The notes below the pieces were generated by a model that was not told where the DNA came from, made no database searches, and saw nothing but the letters and a program-made list of their open reading frames with translations. DNA of 62,581 nucleotides, counting the filler, from Diploschistes diacapsis (lineage: Eukaryota): assembly GCA_023645945.1 (NCBI GenBank). It is 5 parts of 5 records of this genome, joined end to end, with 100 filler letters (N's around TTAATTAATTAA, not from the genome) between each part and the next. Parts side by side here need not be neighbours in the genome. Positions count along the whole stretch, not along the records: positions 1 to 30,932 come from JALAIB010000123.1; 4 more parts are not named here. One strand, given 5' to 3'. A program made the translations under genes and the position numbers. Shown here piece by piece: positions 2,762-54,785 of this stretch. The number at the start of each line of letters is the position of its first letter. Position 1 is the stretch's first letter.

Positions 2762-5700
2762 ATGGCAATAGCCATTCAGACACCAAAGTCATTGAATCAT
2801 ACAGCTATCTGCAGCGGAAATGCGGTCGACAACCCATACGTCATCATGAGTGGCGGTAACGGTGTCGAGGACTCGGATGAGAGTGTCGGTCAAACACCGG
2901 TGAGCAAGGGGTCTGGGAGGACCCCGGAGGATGCGGGTACAGAGAGAAGGAAGCCGGAGAAGATCCCGGGTCTGCGAGCGCGACAAACTTCTCTAAGGAG
3001 AGTGAAGAATAGCACAGACATCTTACGCGAGCGATCAGTACGACGTCAACAAGTGAAAATTGAGAGCGTGCCAGATGGTAATTCCGCTAGTCGAGATGTC
3101 AAAGCCACGAAGTTTACGGTTGCAAATGTTGGAAATAACGGCAAGATATATCTACGGTCAGTATCCCTTCGTACCTCTCTGGCTTGCTAGTTCTTACCCT
3201 TTAACCAGGCCATCTTTGGAGCCCCATCCACAACAGGTACCTCAAGTTACCACCGTCTCTCCAAGCCCGATCAAGGCTGCCGCATTCGTTTCACGGATTC
3301 CAGAACTTCCTCAGAACATTCTGCACACTCGCGACAGCGTTTGGACACTCCTTTCAACTCCCATCCATGCTCCAACCCAACCGAGCACACCGCCGTCTGA
3401 CTACTTCGAATTGAGAACCAGGCCGAAGCGATCTCTATCACAATCAACCATCGAAACCCAGCTTGCGAACGAGCGGCTTGATTCTGGTGCTTTCAAGATT
3501 GTCATTGATCGTCCTGATTCCGCGCCGAAGGACGATACATCGCAACCACACTTTCCTGTGATTGAGGTGTCCATCCCTCACTATAGAATAGGGACGCCGA
3601 GGTTTAGTGCACGCGGAACGGCATTCTTCCATAATTCGGTCTATACAAGATCTTCGGTCCACGTCGATGGGGGGTCGTCTGTCCTGACTCCTGCGGAATA
3701 CGAAAGAATTTTCCCTAAGCCTCCTGGAATCGAAGCTCACGCGGTAGTGTCTCGTCGTCATTCGCATGCTGCTCAGCCGTACGCTTATTCCATCATTTCT
3801 AATGGCGGCGGACGTTCGATGGCCCCTGCACTGGCTACCCACCTCTACGAGCCGAGAGAACCCATCACTCCAGCTGTTTTCGAGCGCCTGGCTTTGAGTC
3901 CAAACGACCCATCCATAGTCAAATTCTCTCCAATCAACCGTGACATAATCGCGGCATCGCCGGCGCGTATCATCGCCCAGATTACGTCGGAAAAATTCCT
4001 CGATTACGAACTGCTGTCAGACTTCTTCCTCACCGTTCGCTCCTGGCTTTCGACACACAGTCTCCTATCCTACCTGCTTGCCCGTTTCGAATGGGCTATC
4101 AACCGATTTGACGATAACGGCCGCATCATCCGAGTTCGTGCCTTTGCCGCCCTGCGACATTGGATATTGAACTACTTCTCCTATGACTTCGTGACCGACC
4201 GGGAGTTGCGGGTCCTCTTTTGCGAGCGGTTGAATGCGCTGACGAAGCTCATCAAATCCCGCGATCATAGCGCTAGCGACCTGAAGCTCATCGCTGACCT
4301 GAAGAAGTGCTGGAACGGGAGATGCCTAGTATACTGGGATGGCCCCGCCTCTGCTGCTGATGGCCAGCAGGATGTCGACATACAACCTGGTGGTATCTTG
4401 GGCAGCAGGGACAGCGAACTGGTGCATCACAGTCAGCTACGCTCAACAACATCTTTGCCGGCTGCTCTCTCGGTGAACCCCGCTCAGGTTACGGCCTGCG
4501 CGACCTCGATATCGACGTGGTACTCGGTAGTAATGGATACTAGAGAGCTGCAGGCCCAGGCCCACAATCGACAATCCGCTGCTGGAACCTTGCAAAGTCT
4601 CCCACGATCGCCGTCGAGCGAGCAAAGCAACCCGGTACTCTCGTGCTCAATACCGGCGAAACAGTTGAAAAGAGTGCTTCCATACGCTAACAAAGCACCG
4701 GGCACCCAGCCTGTGCCGCACAATACCGACGGACGCCGAGTTTGTCCGGCTGCTCCATCGTCGACTGCATACGAGCCTGCACGACCGGTTGCTGTGCATC
4801 GGCGAAGTGGAAGCTTCTCAGATGCCGCAAGAGACAAAAGGGCCCCACTCTCGTCCGAGGTGCCCACTTCTTCTGAAGCTATCGCTCAGGAGTTATACCA
4901 AGGCAACAGCATGCTTCGCGGTCAGGTCGTCCCTCCTGGACCTCCATTCGTTACTGTCGCACCGACAACACCTATTTCAGAGCTTCCGCGACTTTTACCG
5001 ATGGCAGAGTCGTCCGTTAACGGAGGGGAAGGACCCTGCAACCGTAAGCTCGTTGTCCATAACAGCGCTCCTACTAAGGGCATCATCGGCAATATAAGGC
5101 GCGCATTGAGTGGCAAGCACGCTGGCGTCAGCCCAGCAACACAAGACGTTGCTCCTGTACCGTTCTCTCCCCTGACTGCTGGCAAAAGTGCAACATTGCC
5201 ACTCAATATCATGTACCAAGCATCCAGTAATGGCCACATGGAAGCCTTCAGGAGCCAATCTCGCGTGGACCTGCTCGCTGCGAGCACATATGATGCATTT
5301 CAGAAAGCAACCGCGCCGCCCCTGGAAGAACCTGATAACGCCGACATTGTCCTTGGCGATGAGGCTCCACAGCCTTCGCAATCCTCTGAATGGCAGAGCT
5401 CAGCTATCGCGGAGTCCAGCCGACATCTGTTACCGGAGCCACTGCGTCCAGATCTTAGCAGACTTACGAGCGGTGTAACGGACTCCAGCCAGTCCATCCT
5501 GATCATGGATGATACAGGTCTGAATATTCCTAACCTGACTGGTTTCCGTATCCCTCGTGCTCCGGAAACTGCCTCCACTTCCCGAGAGAACCTGCGCGCG
5601 ACCCCGGTTGCATTCCTACCAGGAAGCGCCAGCGCACAGCACACAGAAGGTGACGAGGGCCGCGGAGCCCGGGACATGTCTCATCAATCTAATAAATTCA

Positions 5701-7912
5701 TGGGTTCGAGAAGTCTAATTAACCCAATGGAGCATGATGCACGGCCCGTTTCATCGGCTGGTATAATGCCCCGTAGCAGACCGTCCGCCGTCACGAGAAA
5801 CATGTCCACAGGCTCAGCGTCGCTGTCACTGAGGCGCTGTGCCTCGTTCCAGAGCACATTTGGAAAGCATGTGGCTGGCAACAGCATCAATACTGACGCG
5901 CCAAGTGATTCCTCGAAAAGGATGACAAAGGAAACGCCGGAGAGGATGTTGCGGAGACGCCCGGGTGGTGACCTGCGAGCAAACCAAAACGTGCACGACA
6001 TGGAAGGTCCACGGCGGCCGAAGTCTGCCGGCTCCATTGCAACCTACTCCGAATCAATGCGCGGGTCCCAGATGCTCGGGTTTGGTGAAAAGATCACGAG
6101 GACGTTTATTGCACGGAAATCTCCCGATGAAGTCCTGTATGACCTGGCTGGTCCGCAGGTTGGCGGGAGACGGGAAGATATGCCGTCCTACGTGCGCACC
6201 CATTCATCGCAACATGCCCTGAAAAGACCCTCTTTTCAGGCATGCGTTGCTGAATTTGCGCGCATTCCAGACGACGATGAAGGTGGCGTCGCAGCAACTT
6301 TGCTCAAACTGGAAGGGAAGTACATAAGCCCTGTTCATTCGCCCGCGCCACCAGCTTCCAGCCAATCTAGCAAAGAGCGCTCGCCGGCTGCACCGCAACC
6401 TGAAGAACAAGTTCGCGTAACCGAGCTTGCTACAGACAGCAGCTCTTCGGCATCTGCGGCTCACCTGGAGGACGAGGAAATATTACTGCGTGGGCAGGTC
6501 CTGCAGGAAGATGAACCAGCCGTCAACTCACAGGCTGTGCCTAGAGAGACGGTGATATCGACCGTCTATTCCGAGTCAGAAGATTCCTATAATCCAATTC
6601 CAATTCTAGCACGTGTCGGAGGCGAAGACACAAGTCCTTCCCTTGACAAAGGCAAAGATAAATGCTCGAACAAGGACGGTGAGATGAGGATCGATATACC
6701 CAATGGTGAGAGGAGGTTGAAAAGAGGCTCCATTGCACCCTCCGCGACGACAGACTCTTTTCTCCTCGATGAGAACGACGAGTTCCTCAGCGACGTCGAG
6801 ACCGAAGCATCGGCCGAGACGATTGACGGCAACAGCAAGACCAATCGATGGCTGAACGGAACCAACCGGCCGATGAGCGAGCCAAAGGAGAACGCGGTCT
6901 TGCTTGGCCAGCAACACCCGCCTTCACCGCCTATGACCATGGAAAACGCTCTTTCAATACACTCGCAGGCCAGACAAGCGCACGACCAAAGGAAACCTCC
7001 AACGCCGGATCCTTCGCCCGTCAGTCAGCATGTCGAGCCTAACATTCTAGCCTCCAAGCCTACTGATGCGTTGGAGCTGAAGCACATGCCTTTCATCCTG
7101 GGTTGCGACTCGGAGCTGCTGGCGCAACAGTTTACTATCCTTGAGAAGGAAGCCTTGAAGGAAATCGATTGGAGAGATCTGGTCGACCTGAGATGGCACA
7201 ACACAACAGCTGCGCCGACCAACTGGGTCGATTATCTCATGGCCCACGACCCCCTTGGCATCGATTTGGTGACGGCAAGGTTTAACATCATGGTCAAATG
7301 GGCGCTTTCCGAAATCGTACTGACGGACAACCTCGAGGAGCGCGCCTTGTGCATCATGAAGTACATCCACATTGCGCAGCAAGCACGCAAGATCCACAAT
7401 TATGCCACGCTATTCCAAATTACCATTGCCCTAACGTCGACGGACTGCACTAGGTTGAGCAAAACATGGGACGCTGTGCCAACGGCCGAGAAAGAGATCT
7501 TGCAAGACTTGGAGATGTTGGTTTCGCCCCGGCGCAATTTCCACAATCTTCGATCAGAAATGGAAAAGGCCAACGCAGACGAGGGCTGCATTCCAGTCGT
7601 CGGTGAGTCAGGAAGGCCAATGCAATCCTACAAGCACTAATTAGTTATCTAGCCTTGTATATACACGATCTCACTTACAATTCTTCCAAGCCCTCTCAGC
7701 TGCCCGCTGTTGATGGCGGTGATCCTTTGATCAACTTTGAGCGCCACCGCCGGACGGCGACGATTGTCAAGAATCTCCTGAGACTGATCGACGCGGCGTC
7801 CAAATACCAATACAAGCCAGTCGAGGGCGTTATAGACCGTTGCCTCTGGATGGCGTGTCTGCCCGACCAGATTATCATGCAAAAGAGCAAATCCCTCACA
7901 CTGAACGTATGA
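2762..7912 (+). CDS. LTE1: Lte1-like Ras guanine nucleotide exchange factor (RasGEF_N/REM + C-terminal CDC25 domain); 3 exons: 2762-3156, 3209-7602, 7653-7912
   Basis: REM-like block (FLDYELLSDFFLTVR...ALRHWILNYF) and CDC25 block (LAQQFTILE...HNYATLFQI...GCIPVVALYIHDL...INFERHR). Introns GTCAGT..CAG (3157-3208) and GTGAGT..TAG (7603-7652) join ORFs 2762, 3060 and 7655 in frame. The start could be the downstream ATG (MSGGNG). Confidence 0.88.
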
Positions 7913-13925: not shown

Positions 13926-16900
13926 ATGGCTGAGCCATCTGAAGTCAATGGCGAAGTACTGCCTTCAGGCCCACAGGCTGCTGCAACTACCGGTCTCGGA
14001 AACGGGATCTCTGCCCATCATGAATTTCTGGACAAAGTTCGAGAGCCCCCAATTACTCGACTCCTAAAGGCGGGGGATACAAACCGGAAGATGCTGCTTG
14101 AGCTTCAAGATGGCTCTACATATCAAGGCTACAGCTTTGGCGCAAGCAGAAGTTGTGGGGGTGAGCTTGTTTTTCAGACAGGTATGTTTTATCCCATCTT
14201 GGTATTTAATCAGCTTGGTTCGAAGCCATCCATGTTGGACAGCACACTACTTCTCTTCTCATAGTTATTCCGCCTTGTAAGTTTCTGCAGCACTTACACA
14301 ATCGCAGGGATGGTGGGTTACCCCGAGTCGGTCACGGATCCATCATATCGGGGACAAATCCTCGTCATGACATGGCCGCTTGCCGGGAACTATGGAGTGC
14401 CTTCGCGGAATACAAGGGATAAGCTTCTTGAAGCTGTCCCTGCGTATTTCGAAGCTGCAAAGATCCATATTGCCGGCCTTGTTGTTGCGTCATATGCAGG
14501 AGAGGACTATTCTCACCACTTGGCCTCATCTTCACTTGGAGATTGGTTGAGAGAGAACGATGTTCCAGCAGTCTATGGCGTCGATACAAGAGCTTTGACC
14601 AAGAGAATACGGCACAAGGGGAGCATGCTCGGGAGAATGCTGCTTGGAAAGGGTGTGACCGGTGCCGCTTCGGGCCAGCGACAGTTGGACATCGGCATGG
14701 GCAAGAACGTTTCAACAGGCCAGTTTGAGTACGTGGAATGGTCAGATCCGAATGATCGCAACCTTGTAATTGAAGGTGAGATCGTAATGAATCTAGATTC
14801 CGTAGACAGTCGAATTAATCATTCGCAGTCTCATGTCACGAGCCGCAACTGTACACTCCGAGAGCAGAATCTGCTCTTTTCCATCCCTCTGGGCGGCCTA
14901 TTCGCGTAATATGCGTGGACGTAGGCCTGAAATTCAATCAGCTACGCTGCTTGGTATCTCGAGGCGTTGAAGTTTTACGTGTGCCGTTTGACTATGCCTT
15001 CCCCAAGCTAGCAGGCAAAATTTTCGATGGACTCTTCATCTCGGTATTTGGAACATGGCTATCAGCACACACGCGGTCCATGGGTGCTAACACTTTGTAG
15101 AACGGCCCTGGCAACCCAGCTTTACTCACAGAGACAGTGCAGAACATTGAGACAGCCATTGCAGAAAACCGTACGCCAATATTTGGTATCTGTCTTGGTC
15201 ATCAGCTCTTAGCGCGCGCTGCGGGAGCAAGCACCCTGAAGATGAAATTCGGTAACAGGCAAGGCTTCTGCGGTGATAGAGTGGTCCCTATCTGACGATG
15301 GCTTCCAGGGGCCACAATATCCCATGCACCAACAAGCTCTCAGGAAGGTGTTACATTACCTCACAAAACCATGGCTATGCTGTAGATGCCATGAGTCTAC
15401 CGGCCGATTGGGAAGAGATCTTTGTAAACGCCAATGATAAGAGCAATGAGGGTATTAGGCATAAGAGCCGGCCAATCTTCAGTGTCCAATTCCATCCAGA
15501 AAGCGCCCCGGGGCCCCGTGACACTGAATTCCTATTCGATGTCTTCATTGACGCAGTCAAGAGAAGCGTGCAAGATGCTAGTACTTTACTAAGACCGCTC
15601 AACTTCCCAGGAGGATCAGCCGAGGAGAACGAAGCACTGCATCCTCGAGTTAATGTGAAGAAAGTTCTAGTGATAGGGAGTGGAGGACTTAGCATAGGGC
15701 AAGCAGGAGAATTTGACTACTCAGGTACGACGAATCCTTCTATGATAATCCGGCAGCGGCAGGGATGGTACACAGAGTTCAGAAAACTCACGTGATTTTC
15801 TGTCAAGGGTCTCAAGCGATCAAGGCGCTCAAAGAAGAAGGAATTTACACAGTCCTTATCAATCCGAAGTATGTAACAATCCTTGAGCATACGACCCCTG
15901 GCTTATCATTGCAGTATCGCAACAATTCAGACTTCCAAGGGGCTTGCGGACAAAGTCTACTTCGTACATTTGTCCTTTTGCTTCACTAATGCCGCTAATT
16001 GTTGCAGCTACCGGTCAATGCCGATTCAGTCCGTAAGGTCATCAAGCATGAAAGGCCGGATGGCATTTTTGTGACGTTTGGTGGTCAAACAGCACTTCAA
16101 ATTGGAGTCGAGCTCGAAAACGAGTTTGAATCCCTTGGGGTCACTGTTCTGGGAACGCCAATTGAGACCATCAAGCTCACTGAAGATCGAGAGCTCTTCT
16201 CTCAACGAATGGCAACCATTGATGCCCCGTGTGCCCCGGGAATCACTGCAACTTCCTTGGAAGAGGCGGTTCAAGCCGCCGAGACCATCCGCTACCCGGT
16301 CATCGTCCGTGCCGCGTATGCTCTCGGCGGGCTTGGAAGTGGCTTTGCAGAGAACAAAGCCCAGCTGCAGACGTTGTGCGAGAAGGCATTTACTGCCAGT
16401 CCCCAAGTGCTCGTCGAACGAAGTATGAAAGGCTGTGTGTATTCCACCAAGTTGAAGCATGCGTCGCATCTGCTGACAGTAAGTAGGGAAAGAGATTGAA
16501 TATGAAGTTGTTCGAGACGCACAAGATAACTGCATTACAGTGTGCAACATGGAGAACTTTGATCCTTTGGGAATTCATACCGGAGACTCTATTGTGGTTG
16601 CGCCCTCCCAAACTTTGAGTGACGAAGATTATCAAATGTTAAGGAGCACTGCAATACGGGTTATACGGAATCTAGGAGTCATAGGCGAATGCAACATTCA
16701 GTACGGCTTAAACCCTGACTCTAACGAGTTCGCCATCATTGAGGTAAACGCAAGGCTGTCACGGTCCTCAGCCCTAGCTTCAAAGGCTACGGGGTATCCT
16801 CTTGCATTCGTTGCCGCAAAGCTCGGCCTTGGAATTCCCTTGAACGAGATTTCTAACAGCGTCACGAAAGTGACTTGTGCTTGCTTCGAGCCGTCTTTGG

Positions 16901-19900
16901 ACTATGTGGTGGTTAAAATCCCAAGGTGGGACCTCAAAAAGTTTACACGCGCTAGTAAAACGTTAGGCAGTGCTATGAAGTCTGTGGGTGAGGTCATGGC
17001 AATTGGCCGGACGTTCGAAGAGGCCATTCAGAAGGGCATACGAGGGGTTGATCATCACAATGACGGTTTCAATGCTACCGAGGCCCTTATATCTATCGAT
17101 ATCGACACTGAGCTCCAGACGCCATCAGACCAACGGTTGTTCGCCATCGCCAACGCTTTCTACCAAGGTTATACTATAGATGAGGTCTTCAGAATGACCA
17201 AAATCGACCGATGGTTCCTCCAACGACTCAAAGGTCTCAGCGACTTCAGTATTTACCTTTCGCAATTCACACTTCATTCAGCGTCGACCGAGCTTCTACG
17301 CCAGTCAAAGAAGCTCGGATTCTCGGATCGCCAGTTAAGAAAACTCTTCGATTCTAATGAATTAGAAGTGCGAAGGCGAAGGGTCGAAGCTGGTATCACG
17401 CCTGTCGTCAAGCAGATCGACACTGTTGCGGCAGAATTTCCTGCAGTTACTAATTATTTATACTTGACTTACAATGGCTCCGAGCATGACATTGGATTTA
17501 ACGATCATGGCATCATTGTTCTCGGTAGTGGTGTGTATCGTATTGGTAGCTCCGTCGAGTTTGACTGGTGCTCCGTGACTACGATTCGAACACTCCGGGA
17601 GAATGGATGTCGGACAATCACAATCAACAATAATCCGGAGACCGTGTCAACAGATTTTGACGAAGCTGACAAGTAACGACCCCAGTCGCACGTTGGGTCG
17701 GTAGGGATGCTGACATAGTATCAGACTCTATTTTGAAAACATTACTCTTGAAACCGTACTGGATATCTACCAACTGGAAAAGTCGAGCGGACTGATTTTA
17801 TCTATGGGCGGCCAAACACCTAATAACATTGCGTTGCCATTATATCGTGCAGGCGTCCACATTCTTGGTACGGTACGTAAGATCTGAAAAGTTACATCTT
17901 CTAGTCTTCATATTATCATGTTCACTGTGGATGACTTCTCTACATCACTAACAAGATGGTATCTAACACGTCAATCTATTCTAGTCCCCTGAATCAATTG
18001 ACCGAGCAGAGAATCGCTTCAAATGGAGCCGTCTATTAGACCAAATTCTTGTGGATCAGCCGGCCTGGAAAGAGCTTACCAACTTTGATGAGGCAGCCAA
18101 GTTCTGCGAAAAGGTGGCTTACCCTGTCCTTGTTCGACCGTCTTATGTCTTGTCTGGCGCTGCCATGAACATTGTCTATTCGCGGCACGATCTTGAAAGA
18201 TACTTACAAGAGGCTTCTGATGTGTCCCCTCAGCACCCGGTTGTGATTACAAAGTATATCCAGGTGAGTGCTAGGGCATGTCTCGAGATTTGAAGGACAC
18301 TGATCATCCCGCCTCAGAACGCAAAGGAGATTGAAGTGGATGCAGTAGCTCTCAACGGGAAAGTGGTAATTGGTCCTTTTTTTTTTTTTTTTGCTCACCA
18401 AATAACCAGCACCGTAGATAATTCTAACAAATCATTGACTTCATTTCTTTCTAGATTGGCCACTTCATCAGCGAGCATGTGGAAAACGCTGGTGTCCATT
18501 CTGGAGACGCAACTCTGGTGCATCCGCCCCAGGATTTGGATCCAGAGACCGTTCGGAGGATTGAGAATGCTACCCAACAGATTGGAGGCTCCTTGAATAT
18601 CACAGGCCCTTTCAACATACAGTTCATCGCCAAAGATAATGAAATCAAGGTTATAGAGTGCAATGTACGAGCGTCAAGGAGCTTTCCGTTCGTCAGCAAA
18701 GTAACTGGAGGTAAGATTTAGAACCATAGGCTGGAGCTTTGTACTGATGGTTGCCAAGTCAATTTGATCGAGATGGCTACCAAAGCCATGATGGGACTTC
18801 CTGTTACCGAATATCCATCTGTATCTATTCCAAAAGACTATGTTGGAGTCAAGGTTCCGCAATTCAGCTTCTCACGATTATCAGGGGCCGATCCCGTTTC
18901 GGGTGTCGAGATGGCCTCGACGGGAGAGGTTGCTTGTTTTGGTAGAGACAAGTACGAGGCTTACATCAAGGCGTTGATTGCCACAGGTTTCAAATTACCT
19001 AAAAGAACCGTTCTACTCTCTCTCGGGTCGCATAGAGACAAGATAGAGCTGCTACCTTCGATCAGGAAATTATATCAGCTTGGATATCACCTCTTCACAA
19101 CCCCAGGTACACACGACTTCCTAGAAAGTAATGGCGTCTCCTCTCAATACTTGGACGACGTTCCCGGCAGCTCAAGACCTGAGTACTCACTATCCGAATA
19201 CATGTCAAACAAGGAAATTGATATGTATATCAATCTTCCATCAAACAATCATTTTCGCCGGCCAGCAAACTTCCTCTCAGCAGGGTACAAGTCACGACGA
19301 CAAGCCATTGACAGGAGCATTCCTTTAGTTACTAACATCAAAAAGTAAGCGGCCACAACGGTTAAGTAGTGGTTCAATGCTGACGGCATCTAGCGCAAAG
19401 ATTCTTGTCGAGGCACTCAGCCGAAGGTTTGACTTAAATATTCTTGAGATTGACAGCAAAACGTATGAGACATCAATAAAGTTGGCTACACAATCTCTCG
19501 AGGCTCCCCCAAAACCCTTGGAACCAGCATCGACTGTACATTCACGGATTCTCGAGCTTCTCTCAAGATCACCACAGTTCAAAGATCAAGACATTCTTTC
19601 TGTGGACCAGGTTAATCGGGAGTCACTTCACTCACTGTTCACTGTTGCTCAAGAGATGCGTCTCGGAGTAGAAAAGCATGGTATTCTCGAAATATTAAAA
19701 GGCAAGGTGCTTTGTACTCTATTTTATGAGCCGTCAACCCGGACCTCGGCTTCTTTCGATGCAGCCATGCAACGCCTCGGCGGTGGGACGGTCCCAATTG
19801 CAACATCCTTCTCCAGCACTGTCAAGGGCGAATCGCTGGCGGACACAGTGCGTACTTTGGCTTGCTATGGAGACGCAATTGCTTTGCGCCATCCGCTGCC

Positions 19901-20662
19901 CGAATCGGCCGCTATCGCCGCGGAGGCCTCCCCAGTACCGGTTCTTAATTGTGGTAACGGCTCGCTGGAGCACCCCACACAAGCGTTTCTAGACCTTTTC
20001 ACAATACGCGAAGAATTGGGCACCGTCAATGGACTTACACTGACTTTCATTGGGGACCTACGCTGGGGCAGAACTGTACATAGTTGCCTGAAGCTATTGG
20101 CACATTACAACGTTAACATCCAACTTGTCGCTCCCACGGCTTTAGCCCTGCCGGCCGATATTCGTGAATCTCTCGTCTCCCGGGGGCAGCTTCTGGCTGA
20201 ATCTACGGAGTTAGATCCGAAGATTGTCGCGCGGAGCGACGTACTCTACTGCACCAGGGTGCAGAAAGAGCGTTTCGACAATCCTGCCGAGTACGAGGAG
20301 CTAAAGGACAAGCTTATCGTCGACAACGCCGTGCTGAGCCACGCAAAAACGAAAATGATCGTCATGCACCCCTTGCCAAGGAACAAAGAGATCCCTGAAG
20401 AGGTGGATCTGGACCAGCGGGCTGCATATTTCAGACAGGTGAGTTTCGCAACGCTTTCGATCCTAAACTCTCCCTTTAAATAATTGGAGCGCTGTCGGTA
20501 TGGATGGGCTATGAGCATGGGGAAATTTTCCAAAGATGCAAAGGGTGAACTTGGGATCGAAGACATGGTAACTTGATCAAAGATATTTCAATGCTAACGT
20601 TCGAGCAGATGCGACATGGCTTATTTATTCGCATGGCTTTGCTGGCCCTTGTATTATATTGA
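13926..20662 (+). CDS. URA2: URA2/pyrABCN-like multifunctional enzyme (glutamine amidotransferase + carbamoyl-phosphate synthetase + aspartate transcarbamylase) lacking the DHO-like domain; 16 exons, ~1883 aa
   Basis: Exons 13926-14181, 14308-14775, 14829-15043, 15101-15258, 15309-15724, 15808-15868, 15915-15963, 16008-16434, 16487-17672, 17725-17872, 17985-18263, 18318-18365, 18455-18710, 18759-19344, 19394-20438, 20609-20662 sum to 5652 nt and stay in frame. Motifs: [28 protein letters not shown] (GATase); [35 protein letters not shown] (CPS); [19 protein letters not shown] (ATCase). Confidence 0.95.
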
Positions 20663-24707: not shown

Positions 24708-27700
24708 ATGGACTCGTTACTTGACGACTCGGCCTTCGGTGCCGGTGGTGGTAGTGAGGCCAGCTCAGACTTTGAGCCTCCAGTTGTAAGTATCGGGCTC
24801 GGGTCCCGCTCTCAGCATGTCTCCATTGTTTGCTTACTAGCTTCCGGCAGAAGATAACAGCAAAGGCCGCACCTAAGCCGAAGAAACCAGCTGCTTCAAA
24901 GGCCGCGCCAAAAAAAACAACGCAGACTACCCTCAAGCCTACTAAGACCAAACCAGCCCCAAAGAAACGCGCCAAGCCCATGTCAGACGACGAAGACGAG
25001 GACATCTCCCTTCGAGACCATGTTACTAACGACGATTCCGTACTCTCGCATACTCCGCCTAGTGCCAAGAAGCAGAAGAAGGCTCCGGCACCCAAAAAGG
25101 CTGCCGGCAAGCCTTTAGCTCCTGTTGAGAATGAGGTTGCGGCCTTCGACGGGGCTGCCGAGTCGAAGTCGAAGTCCGCCTCAGACAGGTACCAGAAGGT
25201 ACAGTATTTACATATCCGAGCATGATTTATTTGCTGACAGCCGGCAGCTTACTCAGTTGGAACACATCATCAAACGTCCAGATACCTACATTGGCTCCGT
25301 CGAGCACAATGAAAAGCAGATGTGGGTATATAACAGCGAAAAGGAGTCTATGGAGCTACGAGATGTAAGCTTCGTGCCTGGTCTGTACAAGATCTTCGAT
25401 GAGATCTTGGTCAATGCGGCGGATAACAAGTCAAACGACAAGAACATGGATACTATCAAGGTCTCTATGGACAAAGACAGCGGAGAAATTAGCGTATGGA
25501 ATAATGGACATGGTATCCCGATCCAGATTCACAAGAAGGAGAACATCTACATCCCGGAGATGATTTTCGGCCACCTCCTGACCGGCTCAAACTACGATGA
25601 CGACGAGCAGAAGGTTACCGGTGGCCGTAACGGTTATGGTGCCAAGCTGTGCAACATATTCAGCACGAAGTTCACAATCGAGACTGCAGACTCTAAAACG
25701 AAACAAAAATACAAGCAGACGTGGACCGACAACATGAGTAAGATGGGTAAGGCTACCATCACAACCCAGAAGGGCAGCGATGACTACACCAAGGTCACCT
25801 TCACTCCAGACTGGAAATATTTCAAGATGGATGGCATCGACGACGACTTCGAAGCCTTGGTTAAGCGTCGCGTCTACGACGTGGCCGGAGCGTTGAGGGG
25901 GGTGAAAGTCTATCTCAACGGCGACAGAATCAAGACAAACAGCTTCAAAGCCTACATGGAGATGTATACGAAAGCCATCAAGGCCGAGCGAGGCGAAGAA
26001 GCTGCCGGCGACCTTTCCGAGATCGTTACGGATACCGACAAGAGCCGCTGGGAGATTGGGTTTGCCGTTTCGGATGGCTCGTTCCAGCAAGTGTCCTTCG
26101 TCAACTCGATTGCGACGACTTCGGGAGGTACACATGTCAACTACATCGCTGATCAGATCTGCAACAAGCTGATTGACATTGTCAAGAAGAAAAAGGACAA
26201 GAGTGGAGCGCAGCTGAAGCCCGGACAGATCCGAAACCACCTCTTCGTGTTTGTCAATGCGCAGATCGTCAATCCTGCCTTCACTTCCCAAACGAAGGAA
26301 CAACTGACCACCAAGCAGAGTCAGTTCGGAAGCAAATTCCAGGTCACGGATGAGTTCATGAAGAAAATTGTTAGCAAAACGCAGGTAGTTGCAAACATCA
26401 TGGCCTTTGCCCAGCAGAAAGCGGATCAGATCCTCAAGAAGAGCGACGGTGCTCGCCGTAGCCGCATGGATAACCCAAAATTGACGGATGCGAACAAGGC
26501 TGGTACTAAAGACGGGTGGCAATGCACCTTGATCTTGACCGAAGGTGATTCAGCCAAAGGGCTTGCGATGCAAGGAAGATCCATCGTTGGCCCCGATCTG
26601 TTTGGCGTGTTCCCGCTGCGCGGTAAGCTGCTGAACGTGCGCGACGCCTCCATCGATCAGATTTCGAAGAACGCCGAGATCCAAAATATCAAGAATATCC
26701 TCGGCCTCAAGCACAAGCAAACCTACAACGACTGCAAGAGTCTTCGATACGGCCACATTATGATCATGACTGATCAAGACCACGATGGCTCTCACATCAA
26801 GGGGCTTCTGATCAACTTCCTGCAGGTTCAGTATCCTAGCCTACTGAAGATTCCGCAGTTCCTGATCGAGTTCATCACTCCCATCGCAAAAGTGATAAAA
26901 GGCGACCCCAAAAAGCCTACTAAATCGCACATGTTCTTTACCATGCCAGAGTACGAAACTTGGAAAGAGGCACACAAAAATGAGCGCACCTGGGAACACA
27001 AGTACTACAAGGGTTTGGGTACCAGCAGCGATGAAGATGGAGAGAGGTACTTTCGTGACCTGGACAGGCATCTCAAAGAGTTTCACGCAATGCAGGAGCA
27101 CGAGCCCGAGCTGATCGAGCTTGCTTTCTCCAAGAAGAAGGCTGATGAACGTAAAGAATGGCTGCGGCAGTACAGGCCTGGTACTTTCCTCGATCATACG
27201 ACCCGAGATATCACCTACCAAGACTTTGTCAACAAGGAGCTTATCCTTTTCAGCATGGCTGACAATGTGCGTTCTATCCCTTCGATAGTTGACGGATTTA
27301 AGCCTGGCCAGCGGAAAGTCTTGTTCACGTGCTTGAAACGCAACCTGAAGAAGGACATGAAGGTTGTCGAGCTTGCCGGTCACGTCCTCGGTGTTACTGC
27401 GTATCACCATGGCGAAAACTCTCTCCAACAAACCATAATCGGTATGGCCCAGACATTTGTTGGCTCCAACAATGTCAATACACTAGAGCCAAGTGGGAAC
27501 TTCGGTAGTCGTCTTCAGGGTGGTAGCGATGCTGCTAGCGCCCGATATATCTTCACACGGCTCTCTCCGTTCGCCAGAAAGGTCTTTCACCAACTCGATG
27601 AGCCTTTACTCAAGCACAACGTCGATGATGACAAGATCATCGAGCCTGAGGTTTATGTACCTGTTGTCCCTATGGTTCTGATTAACGGCGCGGATGGTAT

Positions 27701-30407
27701 TGGGACTGGCTGGAGTACGTCAATCCCGAACTACAACCCGAAAGACATTGTCGACAACTTGAAGCGTATGATGAGAGGCGAGGAGCCTGAAGCTATGACG
27801 CCTTGGTTTCGTGACTTCGAGGGAGCGGTTGAAAAGATCGCTTCTGACAGATACAAGATCAGCGGTATTATCACCCAGACTGGAGACAACGAACTCGAGG
27901 TCAGGGAACTGCCGATCCGAATGTGGACCCAGGACTTCAAGGACAGGCTCGTCGACGTGATCAAGGCCGAGAAGGCGCCTTCATGGATCAAGGACTACGA
28001 TGACTACAACACCAAGCAAAAGGTCAACTTTGTAATCCGTATGGAGGACAAACATATGCAGGCTGCTCTCAATGAGGGCCTCGAAGAGAGGTTCAAGATC
28101 GTCAAGACCATGGCCACTTCGAACCTCGTGGCGTTCGATGCGCAAGGGAGGATCACCAAGTATGCCAACGTTGAGGAGATCCTGAAGGCCTTTTATGATG
28201 TGCGGATCAAATTCTACGAGAAGCGAAAGGTAAGGGGTAATGAAGCTTGGATGCCAAGTTGATACTGACACTGTCTAGGCTTATCAGCTCGCTGAGATGA
28301 ATAGTCAGCTAGAAAAGCTGACCAATCAAGCGCGATTCGTACAAATGATCATCGACGGCAAGCTGACCGTCTCAAAGAAGAAGAAGAGGGACCTCGTCAC
28401 TGAGCTCAAAGAGAAGAACTTCAAGCCATTCCCAAAGATCGCTGATGCCACCAAGGATGGTGAAGTGGAGCCAGCCATGGAGGACAAAGATGACGATGAA
28501 GAGGTGGACACTGCTGCCAATGCGTATGATTATTTGCTCGGGGTAAGATTGCAACCACCGGAGATGTTTCGGTTCCTTGTTAACGCCGTCTTTAGATGGC
28601 CATCTGGTCTTTGACCAAAGAGCGCGTGGAAAAACTCCTTAAGCAGATAGGTGACAAACAGCTTGAAATCGACGACCTCATCAAGCTCAGCAAGGAGGAT
28701 CTTTGGAACCGTGACCTCGACGGCTTCATCCAAGAATGGGAGTGCCAGCTCGAGGAAGACCGGTCCATGCGCAAGAAGGTCCATGGTATGAAGCGCCGCG
28801 TTTCCTCCAAGCTCCGAACTCAAGTCAACCCGGGCCGCAAGCGCAAGGGGGGTGAGGACGGCGATGACTCTGACTTTGGCGCGGCGAAGAAGCTTGCTAA
28901 AAAAGCCAAGCCGCAAGAGAACAACTTGCTTGGATACCTCGCTCAGCCCAAGGAATCCGCTCCCACCAAGAAAGTTGCAGAAGCAAAATCAAAACCCAAG
29001 CCAAAATCTGACGATTTCTGGATGAACATTGATGACAATTCCTCCGACATTGACCTCGCAGCCGTCAGCGCCGCAGCATCCAAATCAAAAACCGTGCCCA
29101 CAAAACCACCTGCCGTTGCAACTGCAGCAACTCCAGACTCCGATTCTGACGCCGGCCCAACAGCGGCCCGTGGCGCCCGGCGTGTCGCAGCTCGCAAGCC
29201 CGTCAACTACGGCGCCCTGACAGACTCCGAGCTCGACTCGGACGGAGACTTTGACGTCGGCAAAATGGTCAAAGGCATTGGCGAGAACTCGTCTTCTGCC
29301 ACAACTTCGCGGCCACTGTTCGCTGCCTCAGCCACCACCTCGAGGCCCGGATCAAGTCACGGCCTGGCAGCGGCAAGGAAGAGCTTCACCATGAGCGGCC
29401 GTCCTAGCATGGCGAATGTAGGCGAAGACGGAGAAGGCGAGGACGAGACGGATTATACGCGCCTTGCTCCCTCCAAAGCCGCAACGGCCAAGGCAGCTGC
29501 GATTGCATTAAGCGACGACGAAGACATTACCGGGACCGTGGACCTGGATGGCCCTAACCCCGTCGCTGCCCCCAAGCCCGCGCCGGCGGCAACCGCGACT
29601 GCTGCAGCCAACGGCGTCAAGAAACGAGGGCGACCGGCGGCAGCCACCAGCAAGCCTAAGGGGGCAAAGGAGAAGGAGCCCAAGGCAAAGGCCGCCGATT
29701 CAAAGAGAGCCAAGGCCGCCGGCAAACCAGATAAGAAACAGCCGACCCTCTCGCCCGCCGCCAAGGCGTACGCGGCGAAACAGAAGCTCGCTGCGGCGCC
29801 GGCGTCTTCTGCACCCTCAAAGCCTGCTGCGGCTTCGAGAAGTAAGAATGTCTTTAGCGATGAGAGCGATAACGAAGATGTCTTTGTGGACGCCAAGGAC
29901 GACAAGGGCAATAGTGTGGAGAAGCTCGCGGACGAGATTCTCAGCGATGATGAGGACGACGAGGACGATGATCTGCCTGTTTTGAGTAAGGGTAGGGCCA
30001 AGGGCAAGGACACTGGCGCCAGAACCGCGAAGCAGGCTGCGGCGCCCAAGCCGAAACCCAAGGCTGCTGCGAGTGCTCCGGCGCCGAAAGCGAAGGCTCA
30101 GCCCAAAGCCAAGGGCAAGGCGGCAAAGAGGGCGGCGAGCGAGGACGAGGATGAGCTGGACGCAATGAACTTGGATGGCGCAGATGACGATGATGATGAC
30201 GATGATGACGATATCATCGCTGCGCCGACGGCGAGGGCCGGAGGAGTGAGGCCGGCGAGGAGGGCGGCGGCGGCTGCGGTGAAGAAGGCTTGGATTGTTG
30301 ATGACGACGAGGACGACGAGGACGACGGTGGAGTCGATGAGAGTGAGTTGGTGGTGGATGGGGGGTCGGACGAGAGCGTGGAGTTCGACGAGGATGATGA
30401 TGAGTAG
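24708..30407 (+). CDS. TOP2: DNA topoisomerase II; 5 exons: 24708-24785, 24851-25198, 25248-28229, 28279-28542, 28596-30407
   Basis: GHKL ATPase motifs (KIFDEILVNAADN, GGRNGYGAKL), TOPRIM motifs (LTEGDSA, PLRGK, MTDQDHDGSHIKGL), catalytic ARYIFT, long Ala/Lys/acidic C-terminal tail; all introns GT-AG and in frame. Confidence 0.97.
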
Positions 30408-30932: not shown

Positions 30933-31032
30933 NNNNNNNNNNNNNNNNNNNNNNNNNNNNNNNNNNNNNNNNNNNNTTAATTAATTAANNNNNNNNNNNN
31001 NNNNNNNNNNNNNNNNNNNNNNNNNNNNNNNN
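30933..31032. other. Artificial contig spacer (N44-TTAATTAATTAA-N44)
   Basis: 100-nt N run carrying a linker with stop codons in all six frames. Confidence 0.98.
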
Positions 31033-36342: not shown

Positions 36343-38498
36343 ATGGCTAACATTACCCTTTCATCGTTTTGTCCATCGCCTTTTTTGGCATTGGACGAAT
36401 TTCCTTACAAGGGTGGATGTCAGTGAAACCCCCACTCCCGAGGGCACAAATTTCAGACTGACGTTCGGCACAGTCAATTCGAGTCGCTTCTGTCAGAAAT
36501 CCCCAATTTCAGAGACGGTGTGCTGTCTCCCATGTCCGGTCAACGATTGGATCTACCCTGACAGTACGTGGCTGTTTCCATATGTTGGAGTACTCTAACG
36601 TTAGAACAGACTTCAACACCATCGCACTCGCCACCAATTATCTTGCACTGGGCAGCTTCGTATGCTGCCTGTTTCTCCTCCTCTCTTTTGTTTTCCTGCC
36701 CGTAGCGAAGACGAGCCGCCATTACCTCACGATAGGCCTTGTAATGGGCGTTGGGCTCATCTCCTTGGCCTTTATGATCCCAATATGGGCCAAGCCGGAT
36801 GAGTGCTTTGACCCCATCACGGCGAACGATATGTACACGAACATGGCCTGCGCTTGGAGCGGAGCCATCGTCTTGTTTGGCGGGCTGGCGGCAGTGATGT
36901 GGATCTTCAACAGATCGCTGTCCCTGCACCTCCAGATATGCTGGCAGAGGACGATGGGGAAAAAGTTTTTTTACTGCACACACGTCCTAGCCTGGGGCCT
37001 TACCGCTCTCCTAGGCGGCATCTCCCTCGGTCTCTCCGGGGTATCGTATCGCTTTGGCAAAGTGTGCCATATCAACCACGAAAACAGCCTGGCAGCCTTC
37101 TGGGGTCCGGTCCTTGGGTTTGCGGCCCTCGCCGCTATGCTGCAATTCATAACCTTGGGCTACTGCATGAAGGTCTACCTGCGACATCTTTGGGATCCCG
37201 ACACCACTTCCGGCCCATCTTCCAGCATACCATCGGTACTCCCCTCCATGACGGGAAGCAGCATCAAAACCAAGAGCGCAAAAGCTACGTACAGGAGGGT
37301 GCGTAAGGTCATCGGCCTGCAGTGGAGGGGCGTGCTCGTCGTCATGATCCTTCTCTTCTCTGCCATATATTTTGCAGTCATCTTTCAGGTTTTTGACAGT
37401 CTCAGCCAACGGTCCATTGAGGATCCTACCCGGACCGAAGGTTGGGTTGCCTGCCTGATCGTCAACGGTGGCAACAAAGAGCCGTGTCTTGGTCTCGCCA
37501 GCGAGCTGAGCCTGAGAGAGCCGGTCGTCCTGGCCGTTCTTTACTTACTCTCACTCATGGGCTACTGGTGCCTTCTCTTCCTTGGCCGTCCAAGCATGTT
37601 CAGCGCTTGGTGGGCATTCATCAAGCGGCCTTTTGGTCCACACGACCACTTCGTTTCCTACGACGCACGCCGCATTTCAGATCCACGGAACTACGAGATG
37701 CTCACCTCACCACCGCAATCATACCATATCACCAAGAGACCGCAAGGCGGCCTCGTCGCAACAGCCAAGCCTGCCAGCTACCAAGACGTTCGCGCCTCGG
37801 ACGCCTTTGTTCTGGACCCGGCGCAACTCAAAGATTTCGCCGAAAATTACGGCAACGACGAGAGCCCCATCGACGACATCCCGGAAGAGCCACCACAGCA
37901 ACAACAACAACAACAGCAACAGCAGATCCTACCACAACCAGCTGGCCGCTGGAACACCAACACCGCCATGGCATCCTTCTCCCAACCCTGCCCTCCAGCT
38001 CGCTCGCACAGCCAGCAAAGCCACGTGACCTTCAGCCCCGAAGGCCCTACCGAAATCCCCAGCACCACCGCAACCCCCACGCGCATATCCCACGGCGGCT
38101 GGCCCTCCACCGTCACCCGGCCCGCACCCGTCCTCACATCAGCTTCGCGCGAGACACCTAATACGACAGTTCCAAGCGTTCACCATCCAAGCCAAGACAA
38201 ACAGCCACGCAACCCCAGCGCCTCCTCGTACAGCAGCACTACGCATTTGCGCTCGGAGTCTGCGCTGAGCAACATCGGACGATCGGGCCCGGCGTTGGGG
38301 AGGGAGTTGGTCGGTTCCGGCCATGCGCCTCTAATGACGACAGCAACAACGCCGCCGCCCGTGGCCGGCTCGAGAGGGTTCCCAGGGCCGCCAACGGGGA
38401 AATACGCCTATCGGAGTAATTCGCGGATGGGACTCGGTGCGTTGGCAGGGACTGCGGGGAGGGAGTGGGACGAGCAGGGGAGCTTTACGCGGTACTGA
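36343..38498 (+). CDS. GprM-like (MG00532-type) 7-TM G-protein-coupled receptor; 3 exons: 36343-36418, 36474-36563, 36610-38498
   Basis: N-terminus MANITLSSFCPSPFL...GGFNSSRFC...CCLPCP..DWIYPD, then seven hydrophobic segments with LHLQICW, SYRFGKVCHINHENS, LQWRG; long Pro/Gln/Ser-rich tail with polyQ. Introns GTCAGT..CAG and GTACGT..CAG keep frame. Confidence 0.82.
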
Positions 38499-38856: not shown

Positions 38857-38956
38857 NNNNNNNNNNNNNNNNNNNNNNNNNNNNNNNNNNNNNNNNNNNN
38901 TTAATTAATTAANNNNNNNNNNNNNNNNNNNNNNNNNNNNNNNNNNNNNNNNNNNN
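38857..38956. other. Artificial contig spacer
   Basis: Same N44-TTAATTAATTAA-N44 linker. Confidence 0.98.
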
Positions 38957-41730: not shown

Positions 41731-44700
41731 TCACAGCTCGTCGTCCTGGTCCAGGTCGGCGGGCTTGAGCAGCCCCCCGACTTTCTTCGCTCGCTCCATG
41801 TCCGCGTCCTTCTGGGCTTGCTGCGCAAGCTCGCGGTCTTCGGTAAAGAGCTCTGCATTGTCACCGGAGAACTCCCTCAAGCTGATCAGAAAGTCGCGGA
41901 GAGTGGTCTTGAATTTGTTGATGTCGTTGTTGTAGGCGAAAAGACCCTCGATAAACTGATTGATCTGGACGCTGCGCCTCGTTAGACTGGGGCTCTCAGT
42001 AGAGAAGACTGGGGTACTTGCGCTTGAAGGTTGGGGAACGCCGAACGCAAGATTTCGCCAACAAAGTTTCGCAGAAACTCCTTGTTCGAAGTTCCAGGCT
42101 GACCTTGCTCCGGACTATAGATGGGCTCCGTGATCTTTCCGCTCTCGACAAAATAAAACATTCGGGCCATGAGCATCGACTGCGTCTTGAAACCTGTATG
42201 GACGTGAGCCTCTGGTCGCCAGATATGGGCAAGTCAGGGTTTTACTTACCAGCCTTGTGATCGGTATCCGTGAGCACGAAAAACACATCTTGCAGGATAC
42301 TGATAAAGTACTGCTGGAAGAAGATGTTTGCCGTCTGCGGATCCTGACTCGCCATGTTGTCGATGAGCTCCATGAGCATGGTCAGACCGGTGCCTTCAAC
42401 CTCTCGGTTGTCGTGCTTGCTGGCCCACAGACACGAATCGATCACAAACTTGAACTGTCGTTGGTCGAGTTTGAGAAGGGCAGGGAAGCAGGAGTAGTTG
42501 ATGGCCTTGAGAAGTTTAAAGAATTCCACCCGGTGCTGCGGGTATTCCGAAAAGTCCTTGTTGATCATCTCGAGCGTGCATTCGAACACGTTCTCCATGA
42601 TCACAGGTATGCGATCTTCCATGAGGCCCTGCAGTGAATTAGTAATGTTCGAGGAAAAGATGGTGACACAACAGCTGACCGACAATCTCGATCTGTGGGG
42701 GGAGTTCCAACGTACATGAAGTTTGGTGATGATTGTGGTCATCACGTTGAGGACCTCTGGGTCTCTGGCATCTGGCACGTTCCGGTTGTAATCGACAAGG
42801 ACAGCCTCCAAAAGGGGTGGCACGATGTTCGTGTTGACCATCTCGTGGTCATCCGCCTTCTGTACGTAGATGTCGATAAGTTTGAGGATCTCCTTCTTGA
42901 TAGTCCGCAGCCCTCGAACCTTGGGCATCTTGGTCGCAAGGTTGCCTGTGGACATTAGCCGGAGCGCTTACTGCAGGCAAGATAAAACATACCTTCTTTC
43001 TGAACGGCCTCCGAGATCATTTGGCTCGTCGCACGGTACATCTGTAGCATGTCCATGTATATGCGCCCTATTTGCGGGTAGAAGTAGCTTCCTATCGAAG
43101 AACAGGCAGCCACATTCGTTTTCATAATGTTACCGATGATCTTGATCGTTTCGGCATCCTGGAGGATGGTGTTGTCCTCCATTGCGCTTCGGATGATTTG
43201 GTCCCACTATTTTTGGTAAGTACAAGCACTGAGATGCGGAACGTGTAATTGGTGACGAAAGACTTACCGCCTGATTCGGCGGAGCCATGAGCTCCTGGAT
43301 GAGCCTCTCCTGCACGCTCTTCTGTCCTTGAGCCGAAACCATGTAGCCACAGGCCTCATAGAAGGTGTGCACCTGCTGTGGAGACAGATCGCAGGTGATC
43401 TTCTGCATAGTTCGCACGATTTCGTCAATGAATGGCTCCTGTTCGCCCGGCTGCAAGGCCACGAAGTGCCTCTTGCATTTACTCGCAATCTTGATAAACG
43501 TGTCGCAAGCCATGTCCTGGACGCCTGGGGAAGGCATCAGCAATCCGCAAAGGGCGGAGCTAAAACGACTCGTACTTACCTTCATGTGTCTCGTGCATAA
43601 ATTCGAACAGCTTGTTGACGACCGTCTTCAAAAATTTCCAGTGTGCCTTGAGGAAGCGCGGGTACTGGCCAACGATGTACATAATGTTGCTGGCGACGAC
43701 CGCCTTGTTGTCCTTGCCGCGCTTGGCTTCCGTCAGGCCCAGCAGGTCCTTGATCACAGTGACGAGGAACCGCTTCTCGGTTTCCTCGTTCATCGCACCC
43801 GATATCGAGCCAATTGCCCAGCACAGAGTGTTGCAAGCGTGCCACGACCACTCGGAATCGTCGACCTGACGGGCAAGCTTTTCCGACATGATGTGCTCCG
43901 TGTCCATCACGTCCAGATGTGTCAAATAGACCAAGACCTCACGGCTCGTCTTGTACAGTTGGATCGTGTCACTTTCCTTTACGAATTCTCGCACGATCTC
44001 GCCCTCGTCGTTTTCGACGATCAACACTTCTTCCGGCCGCACCATGTTCTCGATCATGACTTGGCGCAAACTTGTCAGGACCTGATCATACTTGTGTTTC
44101 CGCAGGGGGTAGTTGGCCAGCAGACTGGGGTTGGGAGCACCGCCGTTCGAAAGTCCACTGACGCCGAGAGACACCAGTGGGTTGATGTCGGTCACCGGCA
44201 ACTGCTGCATCTCCTCGTGGAGCTCCTGCACGAGTTTGGCCCAGTAGTCCAAGCATATCTTGAAGAGCTCACGGTCTTCAATCTGGGAGATGCGGATGAG
44301 GTAGAAGTGGGAGTGCGTCAGATAGTCACGGTTCGGAAAGTTCTCGATGAGAGTGAGATGTACAGAAAAGAAGTTACAGAGGAACAGGGCAAGGTTCTGA
44401 ACAAACTCTTGGTCACGCGAATTGCTCTTGGGATATGTCTCCCTCAGACTGACGCTTAACGGTACGATCTTGGATACTGTGGTGATGACCTCGGTAAACA
44501 TCTGGATGAGCTTGTCGTCGTAAACATACTGCGGGCCTATCTGCACGCTCCCAATTTCAGTGAGGCATTTCAATGTCACGTTGCGGAACTCGGGAGCTTC
44601 GAGAAATCTTGTGCGCAATGTCTCAATGATGGGTGTCTCGAATATGTAGCCAAGTGGAATCCAGTTCAAGAAGCGTAGCAGGGTTTCCAGAGTAGCTTTT

Positions 44701-45531
44701 ATCAAGCTTGCCTGGTTCGCAGTCGTCAGGATTTCCTGGCAGAGCTGGAATATGGCAGCGAATTCCGACGACATGGAGTTTTTGAGGTTTTTTGTCTTGG
44801 TCGATGTCATCTGCTCGGCCGAGAAGTCGAAGACCTCTTCCGAAAGGAGACGGAGTATAGCCATGTTGTTTTCGCATATCGATAGATTTGTGTGGCAAGA
44901 CGATATGATCTCTTGGATGAAGGTGGGCCAGTTGTGCGGCCACTCCTGCTTCAGAATCGATACCAGCACCAGATTGAGCTTGTTCAAGAATGTCTTATTG
45001 TCCCTCAGGCTTTCTTCGGAGCTGGACGTCTGAATGATGAAGTTTACGACAAAGTTCCGTATGCCTAGCATGCCGGTTAGATTGTCTCCTGATTGCCAGA
45101 TTGAAGCCGTACCTTGGCATTGCTCTCGGGGCAACACCTTCCACCTCGTCATTATCACATTGTCAAGTACCTGTAGCCCGAGATCTGTTCGTCTTGTCAG
45201 ATATTGCTCCCACCACAGCCTCGTCTAGGTAGCATACATTTGGTTTGCGGATACGTAGACTCTTGAAGGATTTTGTCAACCAAGAGCCACGAGTCTGGGT
45301 TCTCCTTAAACTGAGGATTGTGAGTAGACTGCGAGCTAATAACCTGAGCCAATAGCCTGGGCGAACTTACCTGGTTCATGGCATTCTGTGCTTGGTTTTG
45401 CTAGCAACAAGGGCTTTCAGTATATCTCTCAAGGATGGCAGAACTAGGTGAAGGTGACGTACCACATCCCCCCTGCTCTCGTAGAAGGCTTTGACCGTTC
45501 GGTCAAGCTCCTCCACAGTCGGAGTCGCCAT
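41731..45531 (-). CDS. CRM1: Exportin-1 / CRM1 (KapK), multi-exon
   Basis: [21 protein letters not shown]..., [88 protein letters not shown]-terminus [17 protein letters not shown] (TGA 41731-41733). Confidence 0.97.
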
Positions 45532-46773: not shown

Positions 46774-46873
46774 NNNNNNNNNNNNNNNNNNNNNNNNNNN
46801 NNNNNNNNNNNNNNNNNTTAATTAATTAANNNNNNNNNNNNNNNNNNNNNNNNNNNNNNNNNNNNNNNNNNNN
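46774..46873. other. Artificial contig spacer
   Basis: Same linker. Confidence 0.98.
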
Positions 46874-54685: not shown

Positions 54686-54785
54686 NNNNNNNNNNNNNNN
54701 NNNNNNNNNNNNNNNNNNNNNNNNNNNNNTTAATTAATTAANNNNNNNNNNNNNNNNNNNNNNNNNNNNNNNNNNNNNNNNNNNN
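54686..54785. other. Artificial contig spacer
   Basis: Same linker. Confidence 0.98.

Follow-up and report, generated by a model that had tools for sequence, protein, structure and literature searches.

A URA2/pyrABCN-like gene in a Diploschistes diacapsis assembly encodes a direct CPSase-ATCase fusion that lacks the dihydroorotase-like domain

We analysed a 62,581-nucleotide stretch (the window, 62.6 kb in all) of the Diploschistes diacapsis assembly GCA_023645945.1, which contains a URA2/pyrABCN-like gene for a fungal CAD-like protein. Exon 15 of this gene carries a clean in-frame deletion of ~1.15 kb, and the complete dihydroorotase (DHO)-like domain is gone. We consider it likely that this is the native pyrABCN/URA2 gene, that the ~1.15 kb was lost recently and in one in-frame step, and that the product is a bifunctional enzyme of 1883 amino acids (aa).

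The initial annotation of this DNA had described a direct fusion of carbamoyl phosphate synthetase (CPSase) to aspartate transcarbamoylase (ATCase) with no DHO-like domain between them, and closer examination bore this out. Exon 15 (19394-20438) contains no N, and the CPSase tail, a linker and ATCase follow one another in a single reading frame, within an open reading frame (ORF) at 19329-20483. Relative to P0001, the best database match to this exon, residues 34-416 of P0001 (383 aa, ~1149 nt) are absent at the junction, which is composed of the following segments:

19395..19463, + strand: final 23 residues of the CPSase region (AKILVEAL...EIDSKT), conserved in relatives whether or not they have the DHO-like domain
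19464..19472, + strand: deletion junction, three codons (YET) that can be assigned to either flank in the global alignment to P0001
19473..19547, + strand: retained tail of the old DHO-ATC linker, aligning to P0001 residues 417-441

The retained tail and the three junction codons together form a proline-rich tether of ~28 residues. As to the identity of the missing part, residues 31-372 of P0001 matched chain residues 1-339 of 342 of PDB entry 5nnl, the 'Inactive dihydroorotase-like domain' of C. thermophilum (E=8e-115), and also matched human CAD at its DHO domain (E ~1e-53). Blastp of seven DHO-like probes against the window protein gave no match at E<=1e-5, and tblastn of DHO-like probes against the 62.6-kb window gave a best E of 0.23. 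The initial annotation had also expected no amidohydrolase-like Pfam match between the MGS and OTCace_N domains. No other family was indeed found there in the window protein, but this check cannot discriminate, since the DHO-like region goes unmatched in Pfam even in the carriers P0001 and P0142; the valid tests are the spacing between motifs and the comparison with 5nnl.

The gene model was built with the full-length Glarea lozoyensis homologue P0104 as guide; every in-frame, stop-free GT/GC-AG junction was scored and the best alignment was chosen. The resulting features are as follows:

13926..20662, + strand: URA2/pyrABCN-like coding region, from start to stop codon, with 16 exons and 15 introns
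13926-14181, 14308-14775, 14829-15043, 15101-15258, 15309-15724, 15808-15868, 15915-15963 and 16008-16434, + strand: exons 1-8
16487-17672, 17725-17872, 17985-18263, 18318-18365, 18455-18710, 18759-19344, 19394-20438 and 20609-20662, + strand: exons 9-16
15259..15308, + strand: the sole GC-AG intron of the gene (donor GCAAGG), the only in-frame, stop-free candidate between exons 4 and 5
19345..19393, + strand: intron 14 (GTAAGC...CTAG, 49 nt), directly upstream of the exon that bears the junction
20439..20608, + strand: intron 15 (GTGAGT...CAG, 170 nt)
20609..20662, + strand: last exon, 17 codons that finish the C-terminal helix of ATCase, followed by TGA, in agreement with the C-termini of P0100 and P0104

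The joined coding sequence has 5652 nt and encodes 1883 aa plus a stop codon, with 0 internal stops and 0 N letters in the gene. Its 15 introns are 44-170 nt long, 14 of them GT-AG and 1 GC-AG. Intron 12 contains a simple T/A-rich run at 18367-18401, which was treated as a repeat in read mapping. Over its full length the window protein is 72% identical to P0142, P0141 and P0104. Alignments to Aspergillus sydowii P0142 (2252 aa) and to an Acarospora protein (2249 aa) are colinear at 72% identity and show a single large gap, ~370-390 residues long, which falls at window residues 1541-1564.

Pfam searches of the exon ORFs found CPSase_sm_chain, GATase, two copies of CPSase_L_D1/D2 separated by the D3 oligomerisation domain, and then MGS, OTCace_N and OTCace, distributed as follows:

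14304..15552, + strand: glutaminase part, CPSase small-chain N domain plus class-I GATase (PF00988, E=1.1e-32; PF00117, E=8.2e-23)
15655..18712, + strand: CPSase synthetase, two halves each of pre-ATP-grasp and ATP-grasp (PF25596, PF02786, PF02787)
17110-17346, + strand: CPSase oligomerisation domain between the halves (PF02787, E=7.2e-26)
19046..19333, + strand: MGS-like allosteric domain of CPSase (PF02142, E=4.8e-18)
19548..20438, + strand: main part of the ATCase domain, with OTCace_N at 19590-20012 (PF02729, E=2.1e-42) and OTCace from 20031 onward (PF00185, E=3.3e-24)

The strongest PF02786 match came from the exon-9 ORF (E=1.1e-52). The glutaminase translation contains GICLGHQ and HPE, which we take to be the catalytic-triad motifs, and the ATCase motifs STRT, HPTQ, RxQxER and HPLPR are all present. 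The product of ~1883 aa described in the initial annotation is confirmed at 1883 aa, one polypeptide in which the glutaminase, CPSase and ATCase parts are intact. Residues 52-348 of exon 15 align to the ATC structures of the C. thermophilum CAD-like protein (8bpl, 8bps and 5nnn; E ~1e-123). In a fold prediction for this exon, pLDDT was mostly 70-97 from residue 51 to ~330; it fell below 50 in residues 1-41 and, towards the C-terminus, in 328-333 and 337-348, with a predicted coil at residues 32-46; the low values of residues 1-31 are uninformative on disorder, as this is a helix cut out of the MGS-like domain.

The nearest relatives of the window gene retain the domain. P0001 (87% identity to exon 15) consists of one 751-aa ORF without interruption, from an ENA record, which opens in a read-through of the same upstream intron and closes in the same downstream intron as exon 15 of the window; the read-through at the upstream side is of the 3' end of intron 14. 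The same insert, ~380 extra residues in an uninterrupted ORF, is held by P0002 (79%) and P0003 (73%). ATC-domain trees (227 rows with FastTree; 67 rows with IQ-TREE, LG+C20) placed the window as sister to P0001 (support 99), with P0002 joining next (97-98); both of these bear the domain. The window gene shares with P0001 and P0002 the intron positions on either side of the exon and unusual ATC substitutions such as NCGNG and RWGRT, but these two keep a DHO-like domain conserved to the usual degree, and so provide natural 'plus-domain' comparators. Between P0001 and P0002 the DHO-like domains are 67% identical, where 65% is expected from ATC identity, and the sequences give no sign of domain decay before the loss. 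The RRSS and RRDS motifs of P0002 and P0003 fall in the stretch missing from the window, and we presume that the yeast protein kinase A (PKA) site (RRFS) lies in this same missing part of the DHO-ATC linker. The loss is recent and independent in the window lineage, because the window's own sisters keep the domain. A metagenome scan with P0001 returned 16 loci, all distant (49-66%, best segment); none of them helps in reading the deletion breakpoints at the DNA level, and none carries the window's neighbour genes, so that synteny is unusable for orthology in this set.

Independent DNA for the junction came from sequencing runs. The stretch was matched by three runs from three studies, a lichen metagenome (X1, with a word share of 1.00 and probably the run from which the window derives), 'organism A' (X2) and a rock metagenome (X3). 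A 4141-nt contig of X2 spans 18000-19509 and a 163-nt contig of X3 spans 19351-19513; both cross the junction (19463/19473) and reach at least 36 letters past it. Contigs of two other studies bridge the junction, and an assembly collapse can therefore be set aside: the extra ~1 kb that the initial annotation had named as the sign of such a collapse is lacking in X2 and X3, which cross the junction in its shortened form. In X2, contig coverage ends at 19509 and starts again at 19511; one base is left out, and the two adjoining bins show extra depth. On our reading, this break ~38 nt downstream of the junction is a single-nucleotide polymorphism (SNP) bubble and not a branch into a longer allele.

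The X2 sequence is ~99% identical to the window. Between 18000 and 20686 the single-base differences number 16 synonymous, 5 non-synonymous and 8 within introns; to these are added a 1-nt intronic insertion and a 3-nt in-frame deletion at 19571, this last at the start of ATCase, shortly downstream of the linker remnant. For 538 synonymous and 1730 non-synonymous sites, the ratio of non-synonymous to synonymous change (dN/dS) is ~0.10 (binomial p=6e-7 against neutrality), and the shortened gene is therefore under purifying selection. X3 differs from the window at no fewer than 15 positions (6 synonymous, 4 non-synonymous and 5 intronic). Two single residues were also recorded. In the GGRT motif (GGxT) of ATC, codon 1649 (19785) is G in the window; this is a private variant of the window, because X2, X3 and the family consensus all have R. 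The junction residue Y1542 (19464) reads H in both X2 and X3.

To place the architecture among other fungi, we used the spacing that separates the CPS-tail motif and the STRT motif of ATC in 144 proteins (120 matches, 23 cluster members and the window). Short spacing of 88-194 residues was found in 37 of the 144, including the window at 109, and long spacing of 403-518 residues in 102; it could not be measured in 5. These counts come from best matches to a query with a short junction and are no measure of prevalence. The rarity implied by the initial annotation was nevertheless overstated, as 36 of the 143 other proteins examined are DHO-less too. Many short forms extend from GATase through ATCase in one ORF of 1540-1700 aa with no interruption, and the short spacing is therefore no artefact of annotation or splicing. 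Named examples are Glarea lozoyensis P0103 and P0104, Hymenoscyphus fraxineus P0100, Peltigera leucophlebia P0137, Lichina confinis P0264, Cryomyces minteri P0176, together with a cluster to which Friedmanniomyces endolithicus P0190 belongs; P0176, P0190 and P0264 were classed as DHO-less outside the 144-protein spacing set. Those of Glarea, Hymenoscyphus, Peltigera, Lichina and Cryomyces are annotated NCBI proteins. Botrytis (P0218) keeps the domain. The P0218 record itself, from Botrytis cinerea T4, is a 593-aa protein annotated as 'similar to isoaspartyl dipeptidase (secreted protein)' that has ATC domains and a DHO-like blast match; by these features it is a C-terminal pyrABCN fragment, probably the result of a split or mis-named gene model.

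With trait states re-scored by blast against DHO-like probes, the presence or absence of the domain required 11 changes on either ATC tree. Well-supported branches alone forced at least 5 changes on the 227-row tree (first scoring) and at least 3 on the 67-row tree. A topology with all 27 DHO-less rows as one clade was rejected (p-AU 1.6e-71), as was one that joined the window to its two nearest DHO-less rows (p=0.004), a group picked after the tree had been seen. On these trees a single origin of the DHO-less form is rejected, and the loss in the window is separate from the others. In a well-supported Dothideomycete clade of Cryomyces and Friedmanniomyces, 18/18 classifiable of 23 rows are DHO-less, with P0192 re-scored. 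The older DHO-less lineages have linker remnants that differ in length and sequence; their deletion boundaries lie in noisy alignments, of which only the missing length (275-404 of 500 residues) is usable. Compared with the DHO-less ascomycete fusions of the databases, the window shows the same direct connection of CPS to ATC (109 residues, against 88-194 in the 36 others), but it does not stem from the same deletion event. The initial annotation had allowed that the DHO-less form might already be common in this lineage: it is common among database relatives, yet the window's own sisters keep the domain and the loss here is independent. A full-text literature search, with most subscription journals outside its coverage, found no account of a DHO-less fungal CAD-like protein. 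The architecture is abundant in databases and, as far as we searched, apparently uncommented in print.

The genes around URA2 in the window are listed below:

3057-7637, + strand: Cdc25-type RasGEF
25119-30404, + strand: topoisomerase II
36462-38495, + strand: seven-transmembrane (7TM) protein that weakly matches the Secretin family in Pfam (7tm_2, E=2e-7)
42245-45224, - strand: CRM1/exportin-1
54974-56161, - strand: RGS-domain protein, ~16 kb from the 7TM protein in the window

Two MFS transporters, a carnitine acyltransferase fragment and a RUS/UVB_sens protein are also present. These are ordinary housekeeping surroundings, with no hint of a biosynthetic cluster or of a resistance copy. The best named relatives of CRM1 are from Thelocarpon superellum (83%) and Sclerophora amabilis (80%), a hint that the source is a lichen-associated ascomycete from outside the classes that are well sampled. 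The window also contains four pairs of 44-N runs with 12 bases between the members of each pair (30933-31032, 38857-38956, 46774-46873 and 54686-54785). One pair follows another every 7.91-7.92 kb, all four are outside the URA2 gene, and they look like an artefact of masking or scaffolding and not like biology.

Several observations weigh against the reading of a native gene with a recent deletion. The window URA2 has a median identity of 73.3% to 57 other homologues (>=1840 aa), the lowest of the 58, with the next-lowest median at 79.9% and a median of medians of 83.0%. CRM1 from the same window is ordinary in this respect (median identity 77.3%, rank 39 of 104), and the fast evolution is therefore specific to URA2 and does not extend to the whole organism. 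Such raised divergence could mean that constraint was relaxed or that the gene is a paralogue. A second copy was sought across the 62.6-kb window, so that a second URA2 may lie elsewhere in the genome, and a separate DHO-like protein may likewise be encoded elsewhere. Finally, X1 gave no contig over the stretch; this is possibly a false blank, and X1 was not used as evidence. The next-lowest URA2 medians belong to the DHO-less Lichina, Glarea and Hymenoscyphus, for which taxon sampling could be the explanation.

These points bear most on the possibility that the gene is a redundant, fast-evolving paralogue in a genome that also has a canonical URA2 of ~2250 aa, which would tolerate the deletion in this copy. 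The divergence of URA2 beside an ordinary CRM1 would fit such a copy, as would deviations in 57 of 953 conserved columns over the whole of URA2, a count inflated by the lack of a close relative in the set, for which reason median pairwise identity was used instead. However, dN/dS is ~0.1 in the shortened state, the neighbourhood is of housekeeping type, the trees group the gene with other single sequences and show no duplicated clade, tblastn found no second copy within the window, and the ATC domain alone is no outlier, with 4 deviations in 135 conserved columns against a 90th percentile of 5. Two of the four unusual ATC substitutions are common to the domain-keeping P0001 and none to P0002; part at least of the acceleration therefore predates the deletion. 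We regard a paralogue as unlikely. Somewhat more doubtful still is a scaffold in trans, in which a separate DHO-like protein or the active DHOase docks on the ATC trimer and the hexamer is kept, an arrangement compatible with the deletion account. Bacterial precedent for it exists in A. aeolicus ATC-DHO and the P. aeruginosa pseudo-DHO (PMC8442968; PMC7053772). Against it, tblastn found no DHO-like coding sequence in the 62.6-kb window, and the active fungal DHOase is described in the consulted part of PMC8442968 as of E. coli type, dimerising differently and not binding ATC. An assembly collapse or mis-join that dropped ~1 kb, to which the blank in X1 might lend some colour, is largely refuted and very improbable: X2 and X3 contigs cross the same junction, the deletion preserves the frame exactly and lies between conserved sequences, and the X2 contig break has the pattern of a SNP bubble. 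Equally hard to credit is a decaying gene in a host that salvages pyrimidines from its symbiotic partner. A lichen-associated source and the raised protein divergence would suit decay, but 5.65 kb of coding sequence without stop or frameshift, 15 intact splice-site pairs, a dN/dS of ~0.1 and the conserved GATase and ATC motifs speak against it.

Under the preferred account of a native gene, one genomic deletion in exon 15, after the split from the closest sampled relatives, removed the DHO-like domain together with ~44 linker residues. The shortened protein would then be the working enzyme of the cell: glutaminase-CPSase would make carbamoyl phosphate, and ATCase, on a flexible tether of ~28 residues, would convert it to carbamoyl aspartate. 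ATC trimerisation would be retained, because the catalytic sites of ATCase lie between subunits. The DHO-dimer contact proposed to join trimers into hexamers would be lost, and the particle may be a trimer or be joined in another way, for example through CPS-CPS contacts. Any phospho-regulation seated in the DHO-ATC linker would be lost as well. Altered channelling or UTP feedback, which the initial annotation suggested beside trimer-only assembly, would be a further possibility.

In the available passages of PMC8442968, 10.1101/2024.07.30.605799, PMC9863657 and PMC4581275, the fungal CAD-like protein is described as carrying an inactive DHO-like domain, the ATCase active sites are placed between the subunits of the trimer, and the proposal is that dimers of DHO or DHO-like domains bring two trimers together as the CAD hexamer. 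PMC8442968, 10.1101/2024.07.30.605799 and PMC9863657, in the same partial view, assign the DHO-like domain a structural part in the hexamer and contend that CAD cannot function in human cells unless DHO dimerises; a passage of the preprint 10.1101/2024.07.30.605799 holds that the structural role accounts for the conservation of the DHO-like domain. The domain-less gene under purifying selection is a natural counter-example to a required DHO-like domain, and likewise the many other DHO-less lineages. With ~11 changes on the tree, a domain seemingly absent from the sampled Dothideomycetes, and a loss here while a sister of 87% identity retains it, we tentatively suggest that the DHO-like domain may be dispensable in fungi, a proposal we hold at somewhat less than even confidence.

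If the shortened proteins are the sole working enzymes, they would be natural 'minimal CADs' that need no DHO dimers for assembly and come together as trimers or by way of CPS contacts. In that case the window and its sister would form a near-isogenic pair for probing the purpose of the hexamer, and the raised divergence elsewhere in the protein could be compensatory to the loss. A recent loss with domain-bearing sisters would allow activity, UTP feedback, channelling and oligomeric state to be compared between very similar proteins, and a particle smaller than full CAD may ease structural study. The value of the case lies in a clean natural experiment and not in a unique object; it presents neither a new pathway nor a new fold.

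Set beside known systems, the window protein has the same order and content of GLN, CPS and ATC parts as the fungal CAD-like proteins (S. cerevisiae Ura2, Aspergillus PyrABCN and Chaetomium thermophilum), but the inactive DHO-like domain is missing from it entirely, along with the greater part of the DHO-ATC linker. It differs from animal CAD in that no active DHO domain stands between CPS and ATC. A possible analogy is offered by the bare-trimer ATCases (B. subtilis type and Arabidopsis), which the passages available from PMC8442968 and PMC4581275 present as trimers that need no DHO partner. Those enzymes, however, stand alone, whereas the ATC chain of the window protein is still covalently tied to ~1500 residues of GLN-CPS.

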